Assembly (NCBI GenBank): GCA_963765495.1
Contig: CAVXWP010000002.1
Span: 1-64,000 of the forward strand
Source of the DNA: Blastocatellia bacterium
GTDB lineage: Bacteria > Acidobacteriota > Blastocatellia > UBA7656
Direction: 5' to 3'
Length of the DNA: 64,000 nt
The notes beneath the pieces are model-generated. The model was not told the origin of the DNA, made no database searches, and saw only the letters and a list, made by a program, of their open reading frames with translations. The position numbers and the translations under genes are program-made. Positions 3,663-46,283 of this stretch are shown here, in pieces. Positions within the stretch are counted from its first letter, which is position 1. The number at the start of each line of letters is the position of its first letter.

Positions 3663-3843
3663 CCGCCTTTGTCTTTGGCCGCGCTCGGCGCTTATTTCGA
3701 GCAAATCAGTCTGCCTCGATTGGCGCGGCCCCAACCTTAACTCCTTGCTTGGTGTTTTGACCTTTTCGTCATCATGGTCTTGTTGTCCGAAATACCTTTG
3801 CATCCAATTCGTTGCTGTTGGTCAGGTACTTTCCCGCGAGCCT
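3663..3843 (-). other. ORF-less cassette family C (copy 2)
   Basis: Homology to 50187-50362. Confidence 0.75.
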
Positions 3844-5318
3844 ACTATGAAAATGTCCGGATGTGGCTCACGCAGCAGGTTGAACCTCTTCAACAGTGAC
3901 TTTCAATCCCGTTGCTTCGAGCCGATCAATCAATCGCTTCCTTTGCCTCTCTACATTCTGTTTGTCAAGGTAATCTCCTCCCAACTCTTTATAACTCATC
4001 TGTCGTTCGATCACATGATAAACAATTACCAAAAGTGTGTGGCCGACTGCCACCAATGCCTTCTTCTTCCCCAGCCGCTTCGCTAGCCTTCTATACTGCG
4101 CTGACAGATATGTCTGCTTTGTATGACTCGCTGCCCACGCCGCTTGTACCAGCGCCTCCCGCACATAGGTATTCCCTTTCGTCGTCTTCCCGCTACGCCG
4201 CTTGCCTGCCGATTCGTTATTTCCCGGACACATCCCTGCCCAACTCGAAATATGGCTGTCTGTCGGAAAGCGATCCATATCCACTCCGATCTCTGAGACT
4301 ATTGTTTCTGCCACTCTCTCTCCTATCCCTGGTATTGTTTGTAGCAGTTCTACGGCTTTAGAGACAAAAGGGTCGGCGCTCTCTCCCACCTCCTCGTCAA
4401 TCTGTTGCTCGACTCGTTTGACGGCAACTTCTACTTCTTCATATCGGGTCAGTAACTCGCCCAGCACAAAGCGTTGAGATTTCGTCAGTCGGCCTTCAAG
4501 AGCACGTTTGAGTTGGGGACGCTTGCTTCGCATACGTCGGCGAGCAAACTCACTCAACTTCTCGGCATCGCGCTCACCTGCTGCCAGTGCTCGCAACATC
4601 TGCCTGCCACTGACTCCCAAGACGTCGGTGGCGACTTGTCCGAGCTTGATGTTGGCACTCTCGATCAACTTCTGTATGCGATTGGCAATAGTCGCATTCT
4701 CTTTAACCAACTGCTGACGATAGCGTGTCAACTCTCTCAACTCCCTTATCTCAAGCGGAGGAATGAAGCTGGGCTTTAACAGACCGTGGCGCAGCAAATC
4801 GGCCAACCATTCGCAATCTTTTACATCGGTCTTACGGCCTGGAATACCTTTGTAGTGGCGGGCATTGACAAGCAAGACTTCTACGTTGCCTTCAAGGATG
4901 TTGAAGACAGGCTTCCAGTAAACACCCGTGCTTTCTATTGCAGCAATCGTGCAGCCTTCGGCTATGAGCCAATCCGAAAGACGAAGTAAGTCATCGGTCA
5001 TAGTAGAGAAAGTGCGGACTTCTTTCTTGCCGTGCTTAATGAGGCAAGCGACAACAGTCTTGGCGTGAACATCGAGGCCGCAACAACAAGAATAGATGAT
5101 CTCCATAGCTACCTCTTTCTGGCCAGGGCGTGAGAGCCTTGTTAATGAAGAGTCTACTATGCGTGCTCGAAGCAACAGTTGGTGGTGCCAGAAAGGCTCT
5201 CAGGTCAGGCTGCTATTCGGGCTTGAGGCACCAAGGCTGTACGACCTTATCTGACGCCGCTGACCACAGAGAGTTTAGTCGAACTCGCCCATATTTTCAT
5301 CATTCGTGGCGAAGCCTC
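3844..5318 (-). mobile_element. IS110-family element type 2; left end truncated by ISAs1
   Basis: Right end ATTTTCATAGTAGGC joins a cassette start AGGCTCGCGGG. The ~210-bp upstream non-coding region is homologous to that of the type-1 IS110 but stops about 12 bp short of the end. Confidence 0.85.
3868..5106 (-). CDS. IS110 family transposase/recombinase (DEDD)
   Basis: GLDVHA, IESTGVYW, RKTDVKD, IPGIG and GNNESAGK (catalytic Ser) motifs; 412 aa. Confidence 0.95.
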   Translation of the reverse strand: MEIIYSCCCGLDVHAKTVVACLIKHGKKEVRTFSTMTDDLLRLSDWLIAEGCTIAAIESTGVYWKPVFNILEGNVEVLLVNARHYKGIPGRKTDVKDCEWLADLLRHGLLKPSFIPPLEIRELRELTRYRQQLVKENATIANRIQKLIESANIKLGQVATDVLGVSGRQMLRALAAGERDAEKLSEFARRRMRSKRPQLKRALEGRLTKSQRFVLGELLTRYEEVEVAVKRVEQQIDEEVGESADPFVSKAVELLQTIPGIGERVAETIVSEIGVDMDRFPTDSHISSWAGMCPGNNESAGKRRSGKTTKGNTYVREALVQAAWAASHTKQTYLSAQYRRLAKRLGKKKALVAVGHTLLVIVYHVIERQMSYKELGGDYLDKQNVERQRKRLIDRLEATGLKVTVEEVQPAA

Positions 5319-6623
5319 CAGGGCTGTTGCAAAGTAGGCTCAACGACGCAATATTAGATTTAGGGCCTCTTGCGGATTGGCGTTGTAGCGCCGCCTTGCT
5401 TCCGGCAGATTCTTCAAACCCTGCCTTAATACCATTGCGATTACCAGATTGTTTATCACTGCCAAGCTCTCTGCTGCATGCCCTGTCTTCAACCTACAAT
5501 AGTCCTCTTTCATTGTCTTATCTCTTCGGTAGTGTAACCCATTCTCCACTTGCCAATGCTTTCGCACCACCTGTAGCATCCTTTCAGCATCTGCTTCCTT
5601 CTTTGTCAGGCTTGTTATTCCATAGCTTGTTTCGCTTCGCTTCTTTCCTGTAGACACTATTTCAACTTCTCGCTCTATCTTGTAGACTTGTTCCAAGTAT
5701 GGCCAATCCATCTCTCCTGCCATCATTGAACTTGTTGTTATCTTTCTGTGTTCAATTCGCCCGTGATGTTTCTCTATAGAGCAGGCTGTGGCCAGATCGT
5801 TTTTCATCTCTTTGAGTTTGGTTTTACCCTCTTCTATTTCGAACAATGTTTCAATCTCTGAGCGCAGGTGGGCTTGATTGTCCTTGACTGTCCAGACGTA
5901 ATCGCCGCCAGCTTCGACGACTTGTCGAGAGAGTTCACGTTGTGCAAACATGGCATCACCAGTCACTATTTTCCCCTGTAAATCTATAGATTTAAGCAAG
6001 CGAGGGGCAGCAGATATTTCATTCTCTTTTGATCCTACTTCCATCTGCAAGAGCACAACGCCTTGATCTGGGAGATAGGCTGCAAGCAGATGCAACCCTT
6101 TAGTCTGACCTGCTGGTATAGTCCCTCTAAGAGTCTTTCCATCCATGTTCATTTCTACTGATTGTTCTGCTTTATCAGCAGAAAGCAGAAAGAGACTGAG
6201 AAGTTGTTGAAATTCATTAAGATCAAAAGCCTTGCCAAGTATACGAGAGTAAGTAGTAGGGTGAGGAGTGGAATCTCGATCAAAATCGAGAGCCTCACGA
6301 AGAAACTGCTTTCTCAAAGCAATCCAATGAGCAATGCCACGAGGCTCATCCTCGCCAGCAAGTTTAGCCAGAACGACAAAGACCAAAGCAAGTGCAAGAG
6401 GGTATCGCTTACCTTTAGCTTTGCGATGATCTTTGAGATTCCCTAGATAATGATAGAGACTCCCGACATCGAAGAAAAAGGGAGAATCCCCAGGAACAAT
6501 AGAAGCGGCAAAAGTGTTATACTCCATCAGAGACCTACCTCCGGTTTGTAAAGTGTTTGATTCAAAGAACAACCGGATAAGGTCTTTTCTCTTATCTTGT
6601 CAAGCTACTTTGCAACAGCCCTG
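5319..6623 (-). mobile_element. ISAs1 family element
   Basis: TIR CAGGGCTGTTGCAAAGTAG / CTACTTTGCAACAGCCCTG; no flanking direct repeat. Confidence 0.9.
5340..6527 (-). CDS. ISAs1 family transposase
   Basis: DGKTLRG, KENEI, TGDAMFAQ, VKDNQ, HGRIE and HWQVENGLHYRRD motifs. Confidence 0.95.
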   Translation of the reverse strand: MEYNTFAASIVPGDSPFFFDVGSLYHYLGNLKDHRKAKGKRYPLALALVFVVLAKLAGEDEPRGIAHWIALRKQFLREALDFDRDSTPHPTTYSRILGKAFDLNEFQQLLSLFLLSADKAEQSVEMNMDGKTLRGTIPAGQTKGLHLLAAYLPDQGVVLLQMEVGSKENEISAAPRLLKSIDLQGKIVTGDAMFAQRELSRQVVEAGGDYVWTVKDNQAHLRSEIETLFEIEEGKTKLKEMKNDLATACSIEKHHGRIEHRKITTSSMMAGEMDWPYLEQVYKIEREVEIVSTGKKRSETSYGITSLTKKEADAERMLQVVRKHWQVENGLHYRRDKTMKEDYCRLKTGHAAESLAVINNLVIAMVLRQGLKNLPEARRRYNANPQEALNLILRR

Positions 6624-8388: not shown

Positions 8389-9207
8389 GTCGGGTAAGGA
8401 GGCGATGTTATCATCGCCCCCTCCCCTCAGAACGGTACGGGCATCTTTCGACGCATACCGCTCAAGCATCTCAAAGGCTTCTTGCGAAACCCGGTCGTGC
8501 TTCTCAACACCACCTTCACGATACTCATTTGCTGCCGATTTGCCTTTCAGCCGGAAGCTGCACCAGCCAGTGTTGCCACTGCCGTCATCTGCGTTGCTTC
8601 CTGTATCGGTTCGTCAAACTCTCTCGTGACGAGACACCAGATGGAAGTCTGCACGCTTTCGCGTGAGGTGATCTTGCCATTGGCTCAACCTCTATCCAGT
8701 TCATTACAAACTGGCTTTCGCTTCCTCCATCTTCCTTTACCCGCCACTCCATCAATCGACCTTGCGGCTGATCTACCCCGCAGGGAGAGCGACGGGCTTA
8801 CCACGTTCCGCGTGCGTGCCAGAGTGGGTTAGGTCGTGCCTCTTGGCCGGTGGTTCGACATCTGCGACGGGCGAGTTAGGAGCGCCCGTGCCTGACCACT
8901 TGCCTTTTGGCCCAAGCGTCAAAGCATCTTCCGCTTGTTCCGGTTAACGACCTTTATCAGCACTTCACCTGGGTTGACCATACCACTCAATCCTAGTCCC
9001 CGACCCCTTTGATGCTAGGAGTCGCAACCGCTTCTCACGATTAAGTTGCCACTTCACAAAGGAAGTGAGGATACATTGTCCCGCAGGCTTCGCACCTCGC
9101 CGTTTGAAGCGACGCACGCTACGGTAGGATACTGATGGCAGAACATCAGGTTATATCCGGTTTCAAACAACCGTCATAACAGCCATTCACGCGACTTCGT
9201 GTCGCAC
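8389..9207 (-). ncRNA. ORF-less group II intron (IIB/CL1-like), copy 1, 819 nt
   Basis: 5' GTGCG; 34-nt domain V GAGCGGTATGCGTCGAAAGATGCCCGTACCGTTC; domain VI ending ...CCGAC; inserted at attC GTTAGG|C. Confidence 0.93.
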
Positions 9208-10963: not shown

Positions 10964-11782
10964 GTCGGGTAAGGAGGCGATGTTATCATCGCCCCCTCCC
11001 CTCAGAACGGTACGGGCATCTTTCGACGCATACCGCTCAAGCATCTCAAAGGCTTCTTGCGAAACCCGGTCGTGCTTCTCAACACCACCTTCACGATACT
11101 CATTTGCTGCCGATTTGCCTTTCAGCCGGAAGCTGCACCAGCCAGTGTTGCCACTGCCGTCATCTGCGTTGCTTCCTGTATCGGTTCGTCAAACTCTCTC
11201 GTGACGAGACACCAGATGGAAGTCTGCACGCTTTCGCGTGAGGTGATCTTGCCATTGGCTCAACCTCTATCCAGTTCATTACAAACTGGCTTTCGCTTCC
11301 TCCATCTTCCTTTACCCGCCACTCCATCAATCGACCTTGCGGCTGATCTACCCCGCAGGGAGAGCGACGGGCTTACCACGTTCCGCGTGCGTGCCAGAGT
11401 GGGTTAGGTCGTGCCTCTTGGCCGGTGGTTCGACATCTGCGACGGGCGAGTTAGGAGCGCCCGTGCCTGACCACTTGCCTTTTGGCCCAAGCGTCAAAGC
11501 ATCTTCCGCTTGTTCCGGTTAACGACCTTTATCAGCACTTCACCTGGGTTGACCATACCACTCAATCCTAGTCCCCGACCCCTTTGATGCTAGGAGTCGC
11601 AACCGCTTCTCACGATTAAGTTGCCACTTCACAAAGGAAGTGAGGATACATTGTCCCGCAGGCTTCGCACCTCGCCGTTTGAAGCGACGCACGCTACGGT
11701 AGGATACTGATGGCAGAACATCAGGTTATATCCGGTTTCAAACAACCGTCATAACAGCCATTCACGCGACTTCGTGTCGCAC
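10964..11782 (-). ncRNA. ORF-less group II intron, copy 2
   Basis: Same 819-nt sequence and same GTTAGG|C insertion point. Confidence 0.93.
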
Positions 11783-11929
11783 CCTAACGCCCCGGTTGAA
11801 CGGCCCGCTGTGGCCTCCCCTTCAAGCGAGTGGTTGGATTGCGGGTCCGGTCGAACCGGTTGTTAGGCATCCATGAAGCAAGGCTTCTTCACGACGGATG
11901 AAAATGTCTGAGAGTTTATGTATCCTTCC

Positions 11930-12070
11930 TTCTGGTCATTGGCTGATAGGTCGTCGGGCCTTGGTGCCTTTAGCCCGGTCGTTAGTTTGACTTGGGGAGC
12001 CTTTTCAGGCATCACAACTTGTTGCTTCGAGCACGCATAGCAGTCTCTTTTGTTTTGAGGCTCCCCGCCA
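11930..12070 (+). ncRNA. Putative bridge RNA of IS110 type 1
   Basis: Non-coding region conserved with the type-2 element. Two stem-closed domains carry GTCGTTAG (attC match) and CATAGCAG (element-end match). Boundaries approximate. Confidence 0.6.
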
Positions 12071-12090
12071 ATGCCGAAAGGAGTTCTATC

Positions 12091-13329
12091 ATGCAGATTC
12101 TTTACAACTCTTGCTGTGGTATTGATGTTCACGCTCGCACCGTTGTCGCCTGCCTCATCACTGACGGCAACAAAGAGGTTCGCACTTTCTCAACCATGAC
12201 TGATGATTTGCTTGCCCTGCTCGACTGGCTCACTTCTCAAGGCTGCACTCACGTCGCTATTGAAAGTACTGGCGTTTACTGGAAGCCTGTTTTCAATATC
12301 CTCGAATCCTCCCTGGAGGTTATTTTGGTTAATGCCCGCCACGTCAAAGCTGTTCCTGGCAGAAAGACTGATGTTAAGGATTGTGAGTGGCTTGCTGACC
12401 TGCTTCGTCACGGTCTGCTTCGTCCCAGCTTTATCCCTCCTCCTCATATCCGTGAACTCAGGGATTTGACTCGCTACCGCCAGAGCCTTATCCGTGAGCA
12501 GACTGCTCTTGCCAATCGCATTCAGAAGTTGATTGAAAGCGCCAATATCAAGCTCGCTCAAGTCGCTAGTGATGCTTTGGGGGTTAGCGGCAGGCTGATG
12601 CTGAGAGCTTTGGCTGATGGTCAAACCGATGCTGACAAGATCAGCGACCTTGCTCGTCGGAGGATGAAGCGTAAGAAGGCTGACTTGAAGCGTGCTTTGC
12701 ACGGTCGCCTCACTTCTGCCCAACGCTGGATTCTTAAAGAACTCCTCGATCAGTATGACTCGGTTGAATCCTCTATTAAGAGGGTTGAAGAGAAGATCAG
12801 CCAGGAGGTCGAAACTTCCCCAGACCCTTTTGTTAAGCAAGCTGTTGAGCTTCTCGATTCTATTCCAGGAGTCGCAAAGACCTTAGCCCAGATCATTGTC
12901 TCTGAGATTGGAGTAGATATGAGCTGCTTCCCAACAGACAAGAATCTCTCAAGTTGGGCTTCGATCTGTCCCAGTAATAATCAATCGGCAGGAAAACGAA
13001 AGAGTGGAAGAACCCAAAAGGGCAATAGCTATCTAAAAGCAGCCCTTGTGCAGGCAGCCTGGGCAGCAACGCATCAGAAGGATTGTTTCCTTGCAGCGAA
13101 GTACAAAAGGCTGGTCAAGAGAATGGGGAAGAAGAAGGCGCTGGTAGCAATAGCACATTCGATACTTGTGATTGTATATCACGTCTTAGAAGAGAGAGCC
13201 GGTTACAAAGAGTTGGGAGTAGATTATCTGGACAAAAGGAATGTAGAGAAGCAGCGGCGAAGATTAATCCGACAGCTTGAGGGGACGGGCTTGAGAGTAA
13301 CTGTTGAAGAGGTCGAGCAAGCTGCCTGA
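12091..13329 (+). CDS. IS110 family transposase/recombinase
   Basis: GIDVHA, IESTGVYW, RKTDVKD and SNNQSAGK motifs; AGGAG RBS before ATG 12091. Confidence 0.95.
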   Translation: MQILYNSCCGIDVHARTVVACLITDGNKEVRTFSTMTDDLLALLDWLTSQGCTHVAIESTGVYWKPVFNILESSLEVILVNARHVKAVPGRKTDVKDCEWLADLLRHGLLRPSFIPPPHIRELRDLTRYRQSLIREQTALANRIQKLIESANIKLAQVASDALGVSGRLMLRALADGQTDADKISDLARRRMKRKKADLKRALHGRLTSAQRWILKELLDQYDSVESSIKRVEEKISQEVETSPDPFVKQAVELLDSIPGVAKTLAQIIVSEIGVDMSCFPTDKNLSSWASICPSNNQSAGKRKSGRTQKGNSYLKAALVQAAWAATHQKDCFLAAKYKRLVKRMGKKKALVAIAHSILVIVYHVLEERAGYKELGVDYLDKRNVEKQRRRLIRQLEGTGLRVTVEEVEQAA

Positions 13330-13359
13330 TCAACACCTACTCTTATTTTCATAGCAGGC

Positions 13360-13747: not shown

Positions 13748-14740
13748 TTAAGCGGAAATTGACTCCACTGGACCAATTTCACATCCACATTCCACTGCTC
13801 CCATTTTTATGGTTTGAGTGTAGTTTCTACCCACGACATCCTGAAATTCTATCCTTAAAGGAAAAATGCGCCCATTTGCATGTTCCTGCTTAAGATGAAA
13901 CAGAAAATTCAGCCCAAACCCGTGTCCAGTCGGCTCATCCCCAAATCGGGATATGTGCTTGATGATCGTTGGTTCTCCAGGTCGAAGGTATGTCAATCTC
14001 TCGAATGCTATATTCGCATCAAGTGTAGAATCGAGTTGGAGGCTAACTGTCTCTATTCTAATGTTGATAGCTGAAATATTTCCAATGTTGATAATCTCAA
14101 GCTGTTCGCCTAATTGGATTAAGCGAGTAGCAAATGCAGGTAAAGAATAAATTTGCGAGATTTTCTGAGCCTTTTGCCTAGATTTGGCGCTATTTGTCCT
14201 CTTGGCTCGGGTTCCAGCCTTCTCTTTCGTCTTTCTACTAACTGAATCAGGTGTATCCAAAATGCTTGAGGAACCCACCACTTCCTTAATGAGTTCACTG
14301 ATCTGGACGAGGACTTGGTCTTGGTCAGCTTTTTTCATACGGGCTAAGGGTTTCTCAGGATTAAGTATAGCAGCTTGGTATTTTTGAATAGCAGTTTCTT
14401 TGTAAAGACTAGGTCGAATGGGTATCCACATTATCGTTAAGCCATTTTTTTGAGCGGCATTCAGCAATGGTGGGAGCTCAACATTTGCAATAAAATCAGA
14501 TGCAAGAAACTCTGGACTTACAAGGAGGACTGCAACGCGGGCACGAGTTATGGCTTCTTCGATTTCCTTTTTCCATTCTGTGCCAACCTGAATCTTAGTA
14601 TCATCCCACAATGAAACCTTGTTATCTCTAACAAGCGGTTTTAGGATGATTTGGAGCTTTTCCAACCATTTTTGATCCTTGTGACTATAGCTAATGAATA
14701 TCTGGTTGCGGATGTTTCGTGTGCGTGGCCTCTTCACCAT
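13748..14740 (-). CDS. TIR domain protein (cassette)
   Basis: IFISYSHKD...LWDDTKIQVG...VSPEFLASDFIANVELP, with the catalytic Glu position present. Confidence 0.9.
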   Translation of the reverse strand: MVKRPRTRNIRNQIFISYSHKDQKWLEKLQIILKPLVRDNKVSLWDDTKIQVGTEWKKEIEEAITRARVAVLLVSPEFLASDFIANVELPPLLNAAQKNGLTIMWIPIRPSLYKETAIQKYQAAILNPEKPLARMKKADQDQVLVQISELIKEVVGSSSILDTPDSVSRKTKEKAGTRAKRTNSAKSRQKAQKISQIYSLPAFATRLIQLGEQLEIINIGNISAINIRIETVSLQLDSTLDANIAFERLTYLRPGEPTIIKHISRFGDEPTGHGFGLNFLFHLKQEHANGRIFPLRIEFQDVVGRNYTQTIKMGAVECGCEIGPVESISA

Positions 14741-14926
14741 TGCAGGCTTTATTATATGCAAAAAGACAACATGCACAACCCAATGGTTGCCTAACTCAGA
14801 TTTAGACTCCGTAAAGTTGTTTGATACAACGAACATTAGTGATCTCGCATGAATGGAAATGCCACTAGCGAAATTGAAAGCCATCTCCTTTTTTCCAAAT
14901 CGAGAAGCATCGGGTCACCGAGAGAG

Positions 14927-15745
14927 GTCGGGTAAGGAGGCGATGTTATCATCGCCCCCTCCCCTCAGAACGGTACGGGCATCTTTCGACGCATACCGCT
15001 CAAGCATCTCAAAGGCTTCTTGCGAAACCCGGTCGTGCTTCTCAACACCACCTTCACGATACTCATTTGCTGCCGATTTGCCTTTCAGCCGGAAGCTGCA
15101 CCAGCCAGTGTTGCCACTGCCGTCATCTGCGTTGCTTCCTGTATCGGTTCGTCAAACTCTCTCGTGACGAGACACCAGATGGAAGTCTGCACGCTTTCGC
15201 GTGAGGTGATCTTGCCATTGGCTCAACCTCTATCCAGTTCATTACAAACTGGCTTTCGCTTCCTCCATCTTCCTTTACCCGCCACTCCATCAATCGACCT
15301 TGCGGCTGATCTACCCCGCAGGGAGAGCGACGGGCTTACCACGTTCCGCGTGCGTGCCAGAGTGGGTTAGGTCGTGCCTCTTGGCCGGTGGTTCGACATC
15401 TGCGACGGGCGAGTTAGGAGCGCCCGTGCCTGACCACTTGCCTTTTGGCCCAAGCGTCAAAGCATCTTCCGCTTGTTCCGGTTAACGACCTTTATCAGCA
15501 CTTCACCTGGGTTGACCATACCACTCAATCCTAGTCCCCGACCCCTTTGATGCTAGGAGTCGCAACCGCTTCTCACGATTAAGTTGCCACTTCACAAAGG
15601 AAGTGAGGATACATTGTCCCGCAGGCTTCGCACCTCGCCGTTTGAAGCGACGCACGCTACGGTAGGATACTGATGGCAGAACATCAGGTTATATCCGGTT
15701 TCAAACAACCGTCATAACAGCCATTCACGCGACTTCGTGTCGCAC
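14927..15745 (-). ncRNA. ORF-less group II intron, copy 3
   Basis: Same 819-nt sequence and same GTTAGG|C insertion point. Confidence 0.93.
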
Positions 15746-21271: not shown

Positions 21272-22762
21272 GCCTGCTATGAAAATAAGAGTAGGTGTTG
21301 ATCAGGCAGCTTGCTCGACCTCTTCAACAGTTACTCTCAAGCCCGTCCCCTCAAGCTGTCGGATTAATCTTCGCCGCTGCTTCTCTACATTCCTTTTGTC
21401 CAGATAATCTACTCCCAACTCTTTGTAACCGGCTCTCTCTTCTAAGACGTGATATACAATCACAAGTATCGAATGTGCTATTGCTACCAGCGCCTTCTTC
21501 TTCCCCATTCTCTTGACCAGCCTTTTGTACTTCGCTGCAAGGAAACAATCCTTCTGATGCGTTGCTGCCCAGGCTGCCTGCACAAGGGCTGCTTTTAGAT
21601 AGCTATTGCCCTTTTGGGTTCTTCCACTCTTTCGTTTTCCTGCCGATTGATTATTACTGGGACAGATCGAAGCCCAACTTGAGAGATTCTTGTCTGTTGG
21701 GAAGCAGCTCATATCTACTCCAATCTCAGAGACAATGATCTGGGCTAAGGTCTTTGCGACTCCTGGAATAGAATCGAGAAGCTCAACAGCTTGCTTAACA
21801 AAAGGGTCTGGGGAAGTTTCGACCTCCTGGCTGATCTTCTCTTCAACCCTCTTAATAGAGGATTCAACCGAGTCATACTGATCGAGGAGTTCTTTAAGAA
21901 TCCAGCGTTGGGCAGAAGTGAGGCGACCGTGCAAAGCACGCTTCAAGTCAGCCTTCTTACGCTTCATCCTCCGACGAGCAAGGTCGCTGATCTTGTCAGC
22001 ATCGGTTTGACCATCAGCCAAAGCTCTCAGCATCAGCCTGCCGCTAACCCCCAAAGCATCACTAGCGACTTGAGCGAGCTTGATATTGGCGCTTTCAATC
22101 AACTTCTGAATGCGATTGGCAAGAGCAGTCTGCTCACGGATAAGGCTCTGGCGGTAGCGAGTCAAATCCCTGAGTTCACGGATATGAGGAGGAGGGATAA
22201 AGCTGGGACGAAGCAGACCGTGACGAAGCAGGTCAGCAAGCCACTCACAATCCTTAACATCAGTCTTTCTGCCAGGAACAGCTTTGACGTGGCGGGCATT
22301 AACCAAAATAACCTCCAGGGAGGATTCGAGGATATTGAAAACAGGCTTCCAGTAAACGCCAGTACTTTCAATAGCGACGTGAGTGCAGCCTTGAGAAGTG
22401 AGCCAGTCGAGCAGGGCAAGCAAATCATCAGTCATGGTTGAGAAAGTGCGAACCTCTTTGTTGCCGTCAGTGATGAGGCAGGCGACAACGGTGCGAGCGT
22501 GAACATCAATACCACAGCAAGAGTTGTAAAGAATCTGCATGATAGAACTCCTTTCGGCATTGGCGGGGAGCCTCAAAACAAAAGAGACTGCTATGCGTGC
22601 TCGAAGCAACAAGTTGTGATGCCTGAAAAGGCTCCCCAAGTCAAACTAACGACCGGGCTAAAGGCACCAAGGCCCGACGACCTATCAGCCAATGACCAGA
22701 AGGAAGGATACATAAACTCTCAGACATTTTCATCCGTCGTGAAGAAGCCTTGCTTCATGGAT
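21272..22762 (-). mobile_element. IS110-family element type 1, second copy, in the attC R' core
   Basis: Inverted identical copy of 11869-13359; removing it restores GGAGCCTAACGAC. Confidence 0.92.
21302..22540 (-). CDS. IS110 family transposase/recombinase
   Basis: Identical protein to 12091..13329. Confidence 0.95.
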   Translation of the reverse strand: MQILYNSCCGIDVHARTVVACLITDGNKEVRTFSTMTDDLLALLDWLTSQGCTHVAIESTGVYWKPVFNILESSLEVILVNARHVKAVPGRKTDVKDCEWLADLLRHGLLRPSFIPPPHIRELRDLTRYRQSLIREQTALANRIQKLIESANIKLAQVASDALGVSGRLMLRALADGQTDADKISDLARRRMKRKKADLKRALHGRLTSAQRWILKELLDQYDSVESSIKRVEEKISQEVETSPDPFVKQAVELLDSIPGVAKTLAQIIVSEIGVDMSCFPTDKNLSSWASICPSNNQSAGKRKSGRTQKGNSYLKAALVQAAWAATHQKDCFLAAKYKRLVKRMGKKKALVAIAHSILVIVYHVLEERAGYKELGVDYLDKRNVEKQRRRLIRQLEGTGLRVTVEEVEQAA

Positions 22763-22847
22763 GCCTAACGACGAGATAACCGGCCCGCTGTGGCCAAAGG
22801 GATAATGAATCGCTGGCACGCGGGTCCGGTTGATTGAGCGGTTAGGC

Positions 22848-23177
22848 GGCTCTTTTCTCTCACTCATTTCCTCTCCCTCTTGGCTCAATTTCTTTTTCCC
22901 TTCTGCCTCATCTTTCCCATTAGCTTCTTTCTCGTTGCTTTCGTGCTATTTGATTCGCCCCGTCATTTCTCCCAAAGTTGTCTGTTTGGGCCAAGGCTGT
23001 GCAGGTACTCTCGCTTGAAGAGGCTCTCAGGATGGCAGGGCTTTTGTGCGACCAGCAGAAATCGAGGGTAAATCGAGCAATGAAAAGCGAGCAGATTGAT
23101 TGTCCTCGCGATGAGTTTGCTATCAGGTCATTGAATGATTACCTGTTGAGTCGCTTCCATTTCAACGGTGTTCTGAC
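22848..23177 (-). other. ORF-less cassette family A (copy 6, divergent)
   Basis: GCGACTCAACAGG...ATCGCGAGGACAA..CTGCTCGCTTT, followed by a purine-rich tail. Confidence 0.7.
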
Positions 23178-33260: not shown

Positions 33261-33884
33261 ATGAACTTAGACCCAATAACGACTGCCTTAACTAAGGGTG
33301 GAGTAGAAGAAGGCGTAAAGGCCGCAAAACCTCTTTTGGAGAAGCTTTGCGGGCCAGCGTTGGAGGAACTCGGTTTGCTCCTACAGGATCGAGCACGTGT
33401 ATATCGCTTGAAGAATCAATTGCGTATTTTGAGCAAGGTACAAATTATGCTGCGAGAAGCAGGGACCACTGTGCAAGCAGTCCCACTACGTACTTTACTG
33501 CCTCTTCTTGAAGGTGCAGCTCTCGAAGATAGTAAAATGTTGTCTGACATGTGGGCCGGCCTACTTGCCAGCGCGGCTAGTTTCGGAGAGTCTGAATCCA
33601 TTCATCCAAGTTTTCCCAGAATTCTTAGCGAGCTAACACCACGTGAGGCCCATATATTGGATAAAGTCTATCAAGATGAGTTTGAGAAGATTTGGGAGCC
33701 ATTTCGCGAGGAGCTTGCAAACGAATTCGAAATCTCTCTTGATGAAGTAAATCAAGCACAAGGTAATTTATTCCGTTTAGGACTGTGCCATCTCTCAAGC
33801 AGTCCAAAGGGTACACTCCTCAAACTGAGCGCATTCGGTCGACAATTTCTCAAATCCGCATATGGTCCGATACAAAAGAGGTAA
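33261..33884 (+). CDS. Abi-alpha (DUF4393)-like protein
   Basis: LEDSKMLSDMWAGLLASA...HPSFPRILSELTPREAHIL...LSAFGRQF. Confidence 0.8.
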   Translation: MNLDPITTALTKGGVEEGVKAAKPLLEKLCGPALEELGLLLQDRARVYRLKNQLRILSKVQIMLREAGTTVQAVPLRTLLPLLEGAALEDSKMLSDMWAGLLASAASFGESESIHPSFPRILSELTPREAHILDKVYQDEFEKIWEPFREELANEFEISLDEVNQAQGNLFRLGLCHLSSSPKGTLLKLSAFGRQFLKSAYGPIQKR

Positions 33885-45084: not shown

Positions 45085-46283
45085 ACCGACTTTTTACTGT
45101 CCAAATTTTGGGGTCCATTACATTCTTCAATTACGATAATTGGAGACATTTTGTGAGTATGACTGTGCAGGGTGGGCTTAAGGAGTTTTCTGCCTCTGAA
45201 TACAGTTCTGCGCTACCACTTTATCTAAGCCATTTTAATATTAGGTGTGAGTTGGCTGATGAGGCTAGGAGGGCTTGTCAACACCCTCTACTGCTTCGTT
45301 TTTTCTGTGAGGCATATGGTTCTGTAGATGGGCCAGAAGTTCAGCTAGGCTTAGTACGCGATATTAGATTAAAGGAACTATTCGATGAGTATTTTACGCG
45401 GAAAGTAGCGCAAATACGACAATTCCTTCATCATGGGAACGCGGATTTAGTAATTAGCTACCTGTCTAAACTCATAGCCTATTTGTTCAACAGCTTATCA
45501 GTCTCTATCTTCTCTACGGAAATTCAAGAAGCAACAGGAGATGCAGACTTAAGTACAGAGAACTCTCTCTACCTCCGTTTATTGGACGAAGACATTATCA
45601 TAGAAGAGCAGCCTACAGAATCCATTGAGAAGCGGCGTATTGGCTTTGTATATGAAGAATTTATGGAATATCTATTGGCAAGAACTCTCATTGCGATGCC
45701 TGAACGTTTTGGTTTATGCACCGTATCTGATATTTTTCAAAAGCTTTATGAAGCAGTTAATGTCTGGGTGAATGCGCGTGGCGTTGGAGAATATGTCGGA
45801 ATCATGTTATTGGAAGGTGATTTTGGCTATTCACGCGAAGATGCAATAAATTTTATAACTCTATTAGCTCGCGGGGATTCGGTCTGGCCAACAGCCTTTT
45901 GGTCAGTAATTGGCAAATTATCAGAAGAGAATCTCAATGCAGATGTTTTTGACCTTTTTTTTGATGCAATTAAGGCATTTTCTGATATGAAGGTTATAAG
46001 AAATGCACTTGAGGCTATGTCAAGATACAGCCAAGAAGGCTGCCAATTACTCGCAGCGATTTTATTATGGTCGGCGGCTGTGCCTAAGTTTTTGAGTTGG
46101 AGTGAGTTCTACAGATTATCTCACATGTGTGAGGATGAATTAAAAGAACTGAGCTCACGATTGGTAAGTGCAACCTATTCCAAAGTAAGATTCAATCAGA
46201 TTACAAATATCTCCTACAAGGATGTTCTAAAATCGATACGACCATATATTGAGGAGGATTCCAGCAAAGGTATAGATAATGTC

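Follow-up and report, generated by a model that had tools for sequence, protein, structure and literature searches.

A type-1 IS110-family element at attC ends of an integron cassette array and its predicted bridge RNA

The window, that is, the whole stretch of 64,000 nucleotides analysed here (positions 1 to 64,000 of contig CAVXWP010000002.1 of a Blastocatellia bacterium), carries two identical copies of a 1491-bp mobile element, referred to as type 1, within a large integron cassette array. The element at 11867–13357 (copy A) and its inverted twin at 21274–22764 (copy B) make up an autonomous insertion sequence of the IS110 family, and the non-coding left end most likely specifies a bridge RNA programmed for the ends of attC sites. 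An earlier reading of the window, made from its letters only (the sequence-only reading), had proposed a bridge RNA of this kind; the two-domain organization of the leader and the covariation of its two variable words with the target flank and the donor end, respectively, uphold the proposal. As also described there, the long non-coding region lies upstream of the open reading frame: a left end of 224 nt precedes the gene, which starts at 12091, and 28 nt follow it at the right end. The main features are listed below (a slash within a sequence marks a junction).

11783–11868, plus strand: attC repeat (direct-repeat family D10) interrupted at its GTTAG/GC end by copy A; left target GTTGTT followed by the core AG at 11859–11866
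11867–13357, plus strand: type-1 copy A, 100% identical to copy B; boundary ambiguous within the AGGC common to 11865–11868 and 13356–13359
11875–11905, plus strand: left-end module with the hairpin GAAGC-AAG-GCTTC (11875–11887) and the motif ATGAAAAT (11898–11905); most homologues have CATG, the hairpin and ATGAAAAT in this order
12091–13329, plus strand: recombinase gene, 412 amino acids (aa), with a likely ribosome-binding site AAAGGAG at 12077–12083
13345–13357, plus strand: right end; the donor word CATAGCAG, with the core AG as its final dinucleotide, comes after a conserved ATTTT; ATTTTC plus a variable word in homologues
21274–22764, minus strand: type-1 copy B, with the predicted RNA at 22690–22561, the loop-1 word at 22653–22646, the loop-2 word at 22595–22588 and the gene at 22540–21302
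22763–22850, plus strand: attC with copy B at its other end, reading GTCGTTAG/GC in the orientation of the element (8/8); member of the attC repeat family, folding into a hairpin

By its domains, the 412-aa protein is clearly an IS110-family recombinase. It matches PF01548 (the RuvC-like DEDD domain, 1e-34) and PF02371 (the Tnp domain, 8e-21), and scores 311 bits against a cut-off of 140 with NF033542, 'IS110 family RNA-guided transposase'. A distant similarity to the IS621 transposase (8wt6, E 6.5e-15) could be aligned across both domains. The closest named relative among the matches listed (the best 40 of 561 plasmid records) was ISArsp3 with 42% identity (H4); the other labels read only 'IS110 family'. 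The length of the protein is within the size range given for the IS110 subgroup in the text of Siddiquee 2024.

The first ~29 kb of the window are occupied by the cassette array, in which dozens of direct attC repeats with GCCTAAC...GTTAGGC ends follow each other at a spacing of a few hundred bases. The repeats, including the sister attCs of the interrupted ones, yielded imperfect hairpins on folding. Three integron integrase genes above the curated cut-off are present in the genome, all on other contigs. The two type-1 copies form an inverted repeat of 1501 nt (11859–13359 and 21272–22772), and each is located at the GTTAGGC end of an attC repeat (families D3 and D10). Since the attC repeats are direct and the elements inverted, the copies sit at opposite attC ends (R' and R''), as the sequence-only reading had it. 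With 74 occurrences of the sequence GTCGTTAGGC in the genome, 15 of them within the window, the majority of potential insertion sites must be empty.

In the genome as a whole, five type-1 copies and one 86-nt mini derivative were found. Four of the five copies and the mini derivative are inserted at GT(C/T)GTTAG/GC of attC, in one orientation. The flanks of the five copies share no more than AG(GC), which is present in the target too, and there is no target duplication. Insertion is thus site-specific, without target duplication and without long terminal inverted repeats, as in the IS110 family; the only terminal repeat seen by eye is an imperfect one of 5 bp (ATGAA/TTCAT) near the ends. The empty-site form of the copy A locus is present in one soil-metagenome contig, in which 11864 is connected directly to 13356; the gap amounts to exactly 1491 nt, with four letters (AGGC) ambiguous. 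One type-1 copy (C9:39273–41857) is split after ~350 nt of the element (position 350), where ~1.1 kb of foreign sequence intervenes.

The structure of the leader was predicted by comparison with relatives. From 117 confirmed matches, 80 loci with 42–74% aa identity were fetched, and 68 of these were used together with types 1 and 2 (type 2 is described below). Twelve loci, being partial matches or extra copies in sampled records, were excluded by hand (L033, L036, L065–L067, L072, L083, L087, L088, L090, L091 and L096; for L083 and L091 the reason was not strong). In another seven (L022, L058, L059, L074, L089, L094 and L100) no leader could be recognised upstream of the gene, or the sequence was of insufficient length; 63 aligned sequences were left. 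A covariance model (R1), seeded with six sequences and a hand-drawn structure, gave 64 matches in 59 of 66 sources and places the predicted RNA of copy A as follows.

11941–12070, plus strand: predicted bridge RNA, R1 match of 116.3 bits, its structure backed by covariation
11948–11993, plus strand: domain 1, predicted target-binding loop; outer stem AGGTC (11948–11952) with GACTT (11989–11993), hairpin GG.GC (11963–11967) with GCCC (11973–11976)
11956–11961, plus strand: short guide on the 5' side of loop 1, GGGCCT, antisense to the core AG and the right flank GCCC
11978–11985, plus strand: loop-1 word on the 3' side of loop 1, GTCGTTAG, in the same sense as the left flank and core; core AG at 11984–11985
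11986–11987, plus strand: handshake-guide position, TT; equals the first two element bases in relatives, not in type 1
11994–12066, plus strand: domain 2, predicted donor-binding loop; outer stem GGGGAGCC (11994–12001) with GGCTCCCC (12059–12066), hairpin GT.GC (12021–12025) with GCAC (12031–12034)
12036–12043, plus strand: loop-2 word on the 3' side of loop 2, CATAGCAG, in the same sense as the right end and core and identical to 13350–13357

The two domains are parallel and built alike: the outer stem encloses an internal loop, beyond which a hairpin containing a bulged U closes the domain. The scaffold of the family reads AGGTCG, N5-8, TTGGTGC, x, GAGCCCG, eight variable nucleotides, NN, TGACC and the stem in domain 1, and continues in domain 2 with AGGCACC, N5-6, TGTTGC, the hairpin, GAGCACG, eight variable nucleotides, ACTC and the stem. 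In the R1 alignment 95.1% of the cells are paired, and 18 of the 20 pairs in the four helices change on both sides. The covariation score was 0.488, compared with 0.153 for shuffled alignments (0/500) and at most 0.091 when the partners were slid. RNAalifold, applied to a plain MAFFT alignment of 60 sequences, recovered the outer stem and hairpin of domain 1 only; changes on both sides are seen in 5/5 pairs of that outer stem and 3/4 of the hairpin-1 pairs. For domain 2, an anchor-based search found an outer-stem helix of at least 7 bp in 61 of 61 distinct sequences, whose letters are varied, and 7/7 pairs change on both sides. The two parallel domains of the sequence-only reading are borne out. 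Across 19 pairs there were 48 G-U wobbles versus 6 A-C mismatches, an excess that fits folding of the sense strand. No Rfam family matched the leader, either at gathering scores or at E≤10.

The words in the two loops match sequences at the borders of the element. The four 8-mers named in the sequence-only reading were found where it had placed them: GTCGTTAG at 11978–11985, CATAGCAG at 12036–12043 and again at 13350–13357, and, in the type-2 element, CATAGTAG at 5161–5154 and 3849–3842. The left flank of copy B (22763–22772) reads GTCGTTAG/GC and matches the loop-1 word at 8/8 positions; that of copy A (11858–11868) reads GTTGTTAG/GC and matches at 7/8, in agreement with the earlier counts for these two attC sites. 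For the six type-1-derived insertions together, the left flank matches at 8/8 in four and at 7/8 in two, one of the latter (on contig C16) being a non-attC site.

Recurrence of the words was assessed over the relatives, with the loop-1 word sought from −350 to −150 before the start codon and the loop-2 word within 120 nt after the stop codon. The own loop-1 word was present at 7/8 or better in 39 of 52 loci, against 166 of 2508 trials (6.6%) with the words of other loci; for the loop-2 word the numbers were 40 of 44 and 51 of 1634 (3.1%). Exact matches (8/8) were obtained in 8/52 and 19/44 loci, with controls of 0.2% and 0.3%, respectively. The positions of the matches are consistent, the left one being followed by NN(N)TCATG and the right one preceded by ATTTT(C). 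In every aligned sequence the 8-mer is found after the terminal hairpin and before the 3' strand of the outer stem, and the loop-1 word varies with the insertion site across relatives. Covariation over homologues had been named beforehand as a check, and both the word recurrence (39/52 and 40/44) and the stem pairs (18/20) bore the proposal out. Overall, the recurrence of the words in flank and end, together with the covariation of the stems, indicates that the leader behaves as a bridge RNA that would bind both target and donor.

A shorter guide may reside on the 5' side of loop 1. Over the relatives, this side is antisense to the right-flank positions RT+1 to RT+4 at 63 of 128 positions, compared with 34.6±4.8 in permutations (0/2000), and column covariation links it to RT+1 and RT+3. 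At the right flank, attC sites read AG/GC(T/G)C. For type 1, GGGC-CT predicts AG/GCCC; the actual sites are AG/GCGC, AG/GCTC (three times) and AG/GTCC. Two further candidates were rejected. The sequence GGAGCCT (11997–12003), considered as right-target guide, is the 5' strand of the covarying domain 2 outer stem; AGGCATC (12007–12013), considered as left-end guide, equals type 1's own AG/GCATC in sense, and this match is taken as chance because relatives do not follow it.

Both words end in AG, and this dinucleotide is the crossover core. The two final bases covary between the loops (AG with AG in 34 sequences, AA with AA in 23, AC with AC in 2 and other combinations in 4; n = 63). In a composite insertion on contig C16, the left junction reads CTCGTTAG/GC and the right junction CAGAGCAG/GT, so only AG(G) is common to both; tandem junctions read CATAGCAG/TT and CAGAGCAG/CC, and a type-3 element that is alone in an attC has CTCGTTAG/TT. 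In these three observations, donor and target have only AG in common. The sequence-only reading had placed the exchange at GC, which has to be corrected on the evidence of the C16 composite, the tandem junctions and the covariation of the word ends; the predicted sequence of the circle junction is identical under either core.

Immediately after the loop-1 word come two bases that agree with the start of the element (its first two bases) in 27 of 37 cases at each position (z 4.9 and 4.4). According to the published text of Hiraizumi 2024, this is where IS621 has its handshake guide, in the 3' half of the target loop and adjacent to the core. Both this signal and that of the right-flank guide are independent of how the junctions were placed.

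Related elements in the same genome show the same coupling between word and end. A type-2 element is present in the window.

3842–5323, minus strand: type-2 element; recombinase gene at 5106–3868 (412 aa, 69.4% aa identity to type 1), predicted RNA at 5254–5127
5217–5210, minus strand: type-2 loop-1 word, AATAGCAG
5161–5154, minus strand: type-2 loop-2 word, CATAGTAG
3849–3842, minus strand: type-2 right end, CATAGTAG

That guide and end change together between types 1 and 2 had been noticed before, and the observation holds; it is repeated in a third, recombinase-less type. In the three types of this one genome, the word and the end are CATAGCAG, CATAGTAG and (T/C)AGAGCAG, respectively. The right flanks of the three type-2 copies are alike, GCT(C/T)GCG, and fit the 5'-side guide at 3/4 positions (the permutation test scored the window copy). 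The left end of the window copy is 8 nt shorter than that of the two other genomic copies, by which the TCATG motif is lost. This copy directly follows the stop codon of an ISAs1-like transposase gene (5340–6572, minus strand, PF01609 and PF13808), the stretch concerned being 5318–5340.

The genome contains 15 matches to the RNA model versus seven intact and one interrupted recombinase genes, and six of the matches are type 3. This is a 311-nt mini-element without recombinase gene, having its own ends and its own predicted two-loop RNA. Its copies are the following.

C2: 561273–561583
C9: 30255–30565; 38962–39272; ~45520–45823; 45824–46133
C16: 239086–239396 (L003: 1190–1500, minus strand)

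The type-3 loop-2 word TAGAGCAG fits the element's own right end CAGAGCAG. The loop-1 word TATAGCAG fits the sequence ahead of the copies, which is CATAGCAG (the type-1 right end) in three cases, CAGAGCAG in two and an attC end in one. In five of the six copies, the immediately preceding sequence is the right end of another element (type 1, mini or type 3), and the sixth is alone in an attC at the position of type-1 insertion. In one attC (C9:30168–32055) an 86-nt mini-type-1, a type 3 and a full type 2 stand in tandem, each beginning after the final AG of its predecessor. The left flanks of L041, L051, L057, L060 and L062 read TTT(T/A)C plus 7 nt and resemble the right end of a related element; tandem insertion of one element behind another therefore seems common in the clade. 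Two relatives gave two RNA-model matches each. In L039 (1336–1475 and 1777–1911) the second is inside the broken gene of the first element, which suggests a nested insertion; in L064 (1308–1471 and 3995–4158) an identical second copy is found 2.7 kb away.

In four relatives with 47–50% aa identity, the RNA is downstream of the recombinase gene, on the same strand.

L058: 2487–2619
L059: 2745–2877
L089: 1734–1869
L094: 2692–2820

The words of these RNAs still match the left flank and the right end, and the right end of ATTTTC plus word is in place. The left-end module of CATG, hairpin and ATGAAAAT is kept at the left even where the RNA is downstream of the gene. In a quick tree of 53 proteins, from which L089 and L094 were omitted for their short reading frames, L058 and L059 form one clade nested among the upstream types.

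The data suggest the following scheme. The 224-nt left end most likely encodes a two-domain bridge RNA of ~130 nt, the domains being parallel. GTCGTT-AG in the 3' half of loop 1, which has the sense of the left flank and core, would pair with the bottom strand, the two handshake bases coming next; GGGC-CT in the 5' half would be complementary in antisense to the core plus the beginning of the right flank. In combination, the domain 1 guides would specify GTCGTT-AG-GC(C)C, the R'/R'' end of the attC sites of this genome. In domain 2, CATAGC-AG on the 3' side of the loop corresponds to the element's own right end and core. The leader would be transcribed and bound by the 412-aa DEDD/Ser recombinase, which, by analogy with the recombination chemistry of IS621, would recombine the circular junction of right and left end (RE-LE, CATAGC-AG-GCATCC) with the target at the common AG. 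On the strand opposite to the gene this AG reads CT, and insertion would proceed without target duplication. For type 3, a target loop matching the autonomous element's right end may lead to tandem pile-up behind that element.

Several results weigh against this scheme. The left match at 7/8 or better is missing in 13 of 52 loci and the right match in 4 of 44; for type 2, the loop-1 word agrees with its own three left flanks at only 4/8, 6/8 and 4/8. No R1 match at E≤0.01 was obtained in 7 of 66 sources. The alignment behind the pairing statistics (A4, derived from R1) was fitted to the structure of the model, which favours pairing; the structure is backed by two independent checks, RNAalifold for domain 1 and the anchor-based helix search for domain 2. 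The right-flank guide is weak: the complement of the core matches at 41 of 64 positions only, and its register varies among subclades. When loop 2 was compared with both sides of the RE-LE junction, the right-end word was found as described, and no left-end (right-donor) guide was found by column covariation or by eye; beyond the two handshake columns, no RNA column exceeded a z of 3.0 against the left end. In the column-covariation run the left and right junctions were picked by word match, so the LT and LD z-scores are circular. The handshake TT of type 1 does not match its own left end, GC. A scan of 11780–12120 of the integrated copy revealed no sigma-70-like promoter or terminator. A search for sequencing runs containing this stretch brought up no RNA run. 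Finally, the shorter arm of the empty-site contig measures just 25 nt, and its source sample may be that of the assembly.

Could the leader act as DNA or as a 5' untranslated region, its 8-mers being subterminal protein-binding repeats or elements of translation control, with the protein picking the target? We consider this very unlikely. In its favour, the left-end motif ATGAAAAT and the right-end sequence ATTTTCAT are reverse complements of each other, which implies some symmetry of the ends at the DNA level. The loop-1 word, however, matches host DNA outside the element and varies with the site, which would not be expected for an internal protein-binding repeat, and the covarying stems tolerate G-U but avoid A-C. 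Related recombinases, moreover, need such RNAs by experiment, as the published texts of Durrant 2024 and Siddiquee 2024 have it. Even less credit can be given to the view that the word matches arose by chance or from the way in which the ends were delimited, for instance through microhomology at the junctions. Words of 8 nt are short and GTTAG-like words are common, as the 74 genomic occurrences of GTCGTTAGGC illustrate, but the observed frequencies of 75% and 91% far exceed the permutation controls, the same holds for the exact matches, and the words occupy fixed places of a conserved scaffold.

Two alternatives concern the assignment of parts within a bridge RNA. A core of GC, with the 8-mers stopping just ahead of it (GTCGTTAG/GC), is improbable: GC does follow both junctions in three uninterrupted attC insertions, and the empty-site contig leaves AGGC ambiguous, but the C16 composite shares only AG(G), the tandem junctions continue with TT or CC, and the word ends covary as AG, AA or AC; in IS621, by the text of Durrant 2024, both guides include the core. 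Somewhat less improbable, though still unlikely, is that the order of the guides is really that of IS621 and that the 3'-side or strand assignment made here is wrong, as the comparison is based on the published text of IS621 and ISEc21. Against this, the 8-mer comes after the terminal hairpin and before the 3' strand of the outer stem in every aligned sequence, it has the sense of the flank beside the RNA-bearing end, and the handshake bases come next, just as they come after the right target guide in the published IS621 text.

Background given by the sequence-only reading, namely that IS110 recombinases use a bispecific RNA and that attC-targeting IS1111 elements exist, agrees with the texts of Durrant 2024 and Siddiquee 2024. 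The bridge-RNA mechanism was described in 2024, and the sister IS1111 group is likewise known to target attC, so that it is the variant features that set the present elements apart. As far as the published text on IS621 and ISEc21 goes, the likeness to these includes a recombinase with DEDD and Tnp domains, a long non-coding region upstream of the gene, one RNA with the target loop ahead of the donor loop, the lack of long terminal or subterminal inverted repeats, and a 2-nt core contained in the guides, with the handshake 3' of the core. In IS621 and ISEc21 each loop reads both strands around the core; in type 1 guides for both sides are predicted for loop 1, and for loop 2 the right-end word. 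The differences lie in the guide order, in the core strand and in the RNA, which here is outside every Rfam family. The long left-sense words of 8 nt are on the 3' sides of the loops in type 1 and the short antisense guide is on the 5' side of loop 1; the published text on IS621/ISEc21 gives the reverse, so the guide order appears opposite. ISEc21, an IS110-type element, has the same guide order as IS621 and four IS1111 members, including the attC-targeting ISKpn4 and ISPst6, have the reverse order in the text of Siddiquee 2024. The core is AG on the coding strand here and CT on the other strand, in distinction to IS621. Swapping the DNA strands maps type 1 onto IS621 (core CT, long right guide, handshake), so that the mechanism is most likely the same, with gene and RNA encoded on the opposite strand relative to the core. 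The protein is also longer (412 aa compared with Protein Data Bank chains of 328 for IS621 and 341 for ISCro4).

With the IS1111-attC group (ISKpn4, ISPst6, ISPa25 and ISPa21), type 1 shares insertion at one attC end in one orientation; target choice is RNA-based in that group, and in both the match complementary to the top strand is 5' of the match complementary to the bottom strand (text of Siddiquee 2024). By the same source, the IS1111 elements have a downstream non-coding region, subterminal inverted repeats of usually 11–13 bp and recombinases of 330–350 aa, whereas type 1 has its RNA upstream, only the 5-bp imperfect repeat seen by eye and a protein of 412 aa. The likeness is thus one of behaviour, not of membership. 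Exceptions in the position of the non-coding region were already noted in Siddiquee 2024, in the text available. Type 3 resembles ISPpu9/ssr9 of Pseudomonas putida, a module of an RNA gene only that occurs with and without a recombinase gene and was proposed by the ISPpu9 authors, in the published text, to be a selfish element using the recombinase of the insertion sequence. According to that text ssr9 is downstream of the gene and dispensable for transposition; type 3 differs in having its own ends, its own two-loop RNA and a target word that fits the type-1 right end.

A broader proposal for the clade of ~410-aa, IS110-proper-like recombinases can be made only tentatively, and we stop short of favouring it. 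In these elements the cargo may be inverted with respect to the IS621 geometry, with a CT core antisense to the gene and the long guide and handshake 3' in both loops (the IS1111 seekRNA order, although the RNA is upstream). The RNA module may have moved to the other end at least once (L058/L059), the RNA may have been captured by recombinase-less mini-elements that target the right end of the autonomous element, and attC targeting may have arisen independently of the IS1111-attC group. An upstream RNA whose guides stand in reverse order, the strand of the core and mini-elements consisting of RNA only would set the clade apart, judged against the published text on IS621 and ISEc21.

Bridge RNAs are under development as programmable recombination tools and, to our knowledge, nearly all detailed knowledge of them comes from IS621. 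If true, a natural family in which the guides are ordered the other way round, the core strand differs and a 6+2-nt guide is placed 3' in the loop would widen the design space, and the clade offers ~60 naturally reprogrammed guide-target pairs for study. Type 1 would also represent a second DEDD lineage that lands on attC, besides the IS1111-attC group. The insertion point is four bases from what we take to be the integrase cut point of the textbook attC model, and insertion near this cut may prevent cassettes of a large chromosomal array from being exchanged, or alter how they are. Type 3 is an apparent case of a guide RNA retargeted to the end of a sibling element. If type 1 were merely another bridge-RNA member of IS110, it would be ordinary.

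Other features of the window concern the array and its surroundings. Three near-identical group II introns of ~760 nt are located inside the array on the minus strand (8389–9150, 10964–11725 and 14927–15688). Each scores 113.8 bits with Rfam RF02012 and 64 bits with RF00029 and has no reverse transcriptase reading frame; one ends 58 nt ahead of the attC that carries copy A. These three introns may be members of the attC-homing group IIC lineage. Group IIC-attC introns resemble type 1 in being mobile elements that home to attC, but they are retroelements based on a ribozyme, and their mechanism is unrelated. Attention is also drawn by ~33000–55000, where attC-like GTTAGGC/GCCTAAC sequences form a second run in the orientation opposite to that of the first (1–29000); accordingly, GTCGTTAGGC is on the plus strand in this run and on the minus strand in the first array. 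Between the two runs are transposase genes of the IS66, IS4 and DDE_Tnp_1 types. Defence-like genes are borne on cassettes as well: a TIR-domain protein of 378 aa (13748–14884, minus strand) adjoins type-1 copy A, and an Abi_alpha protein is encoded at 33261–33884 (plus strand).

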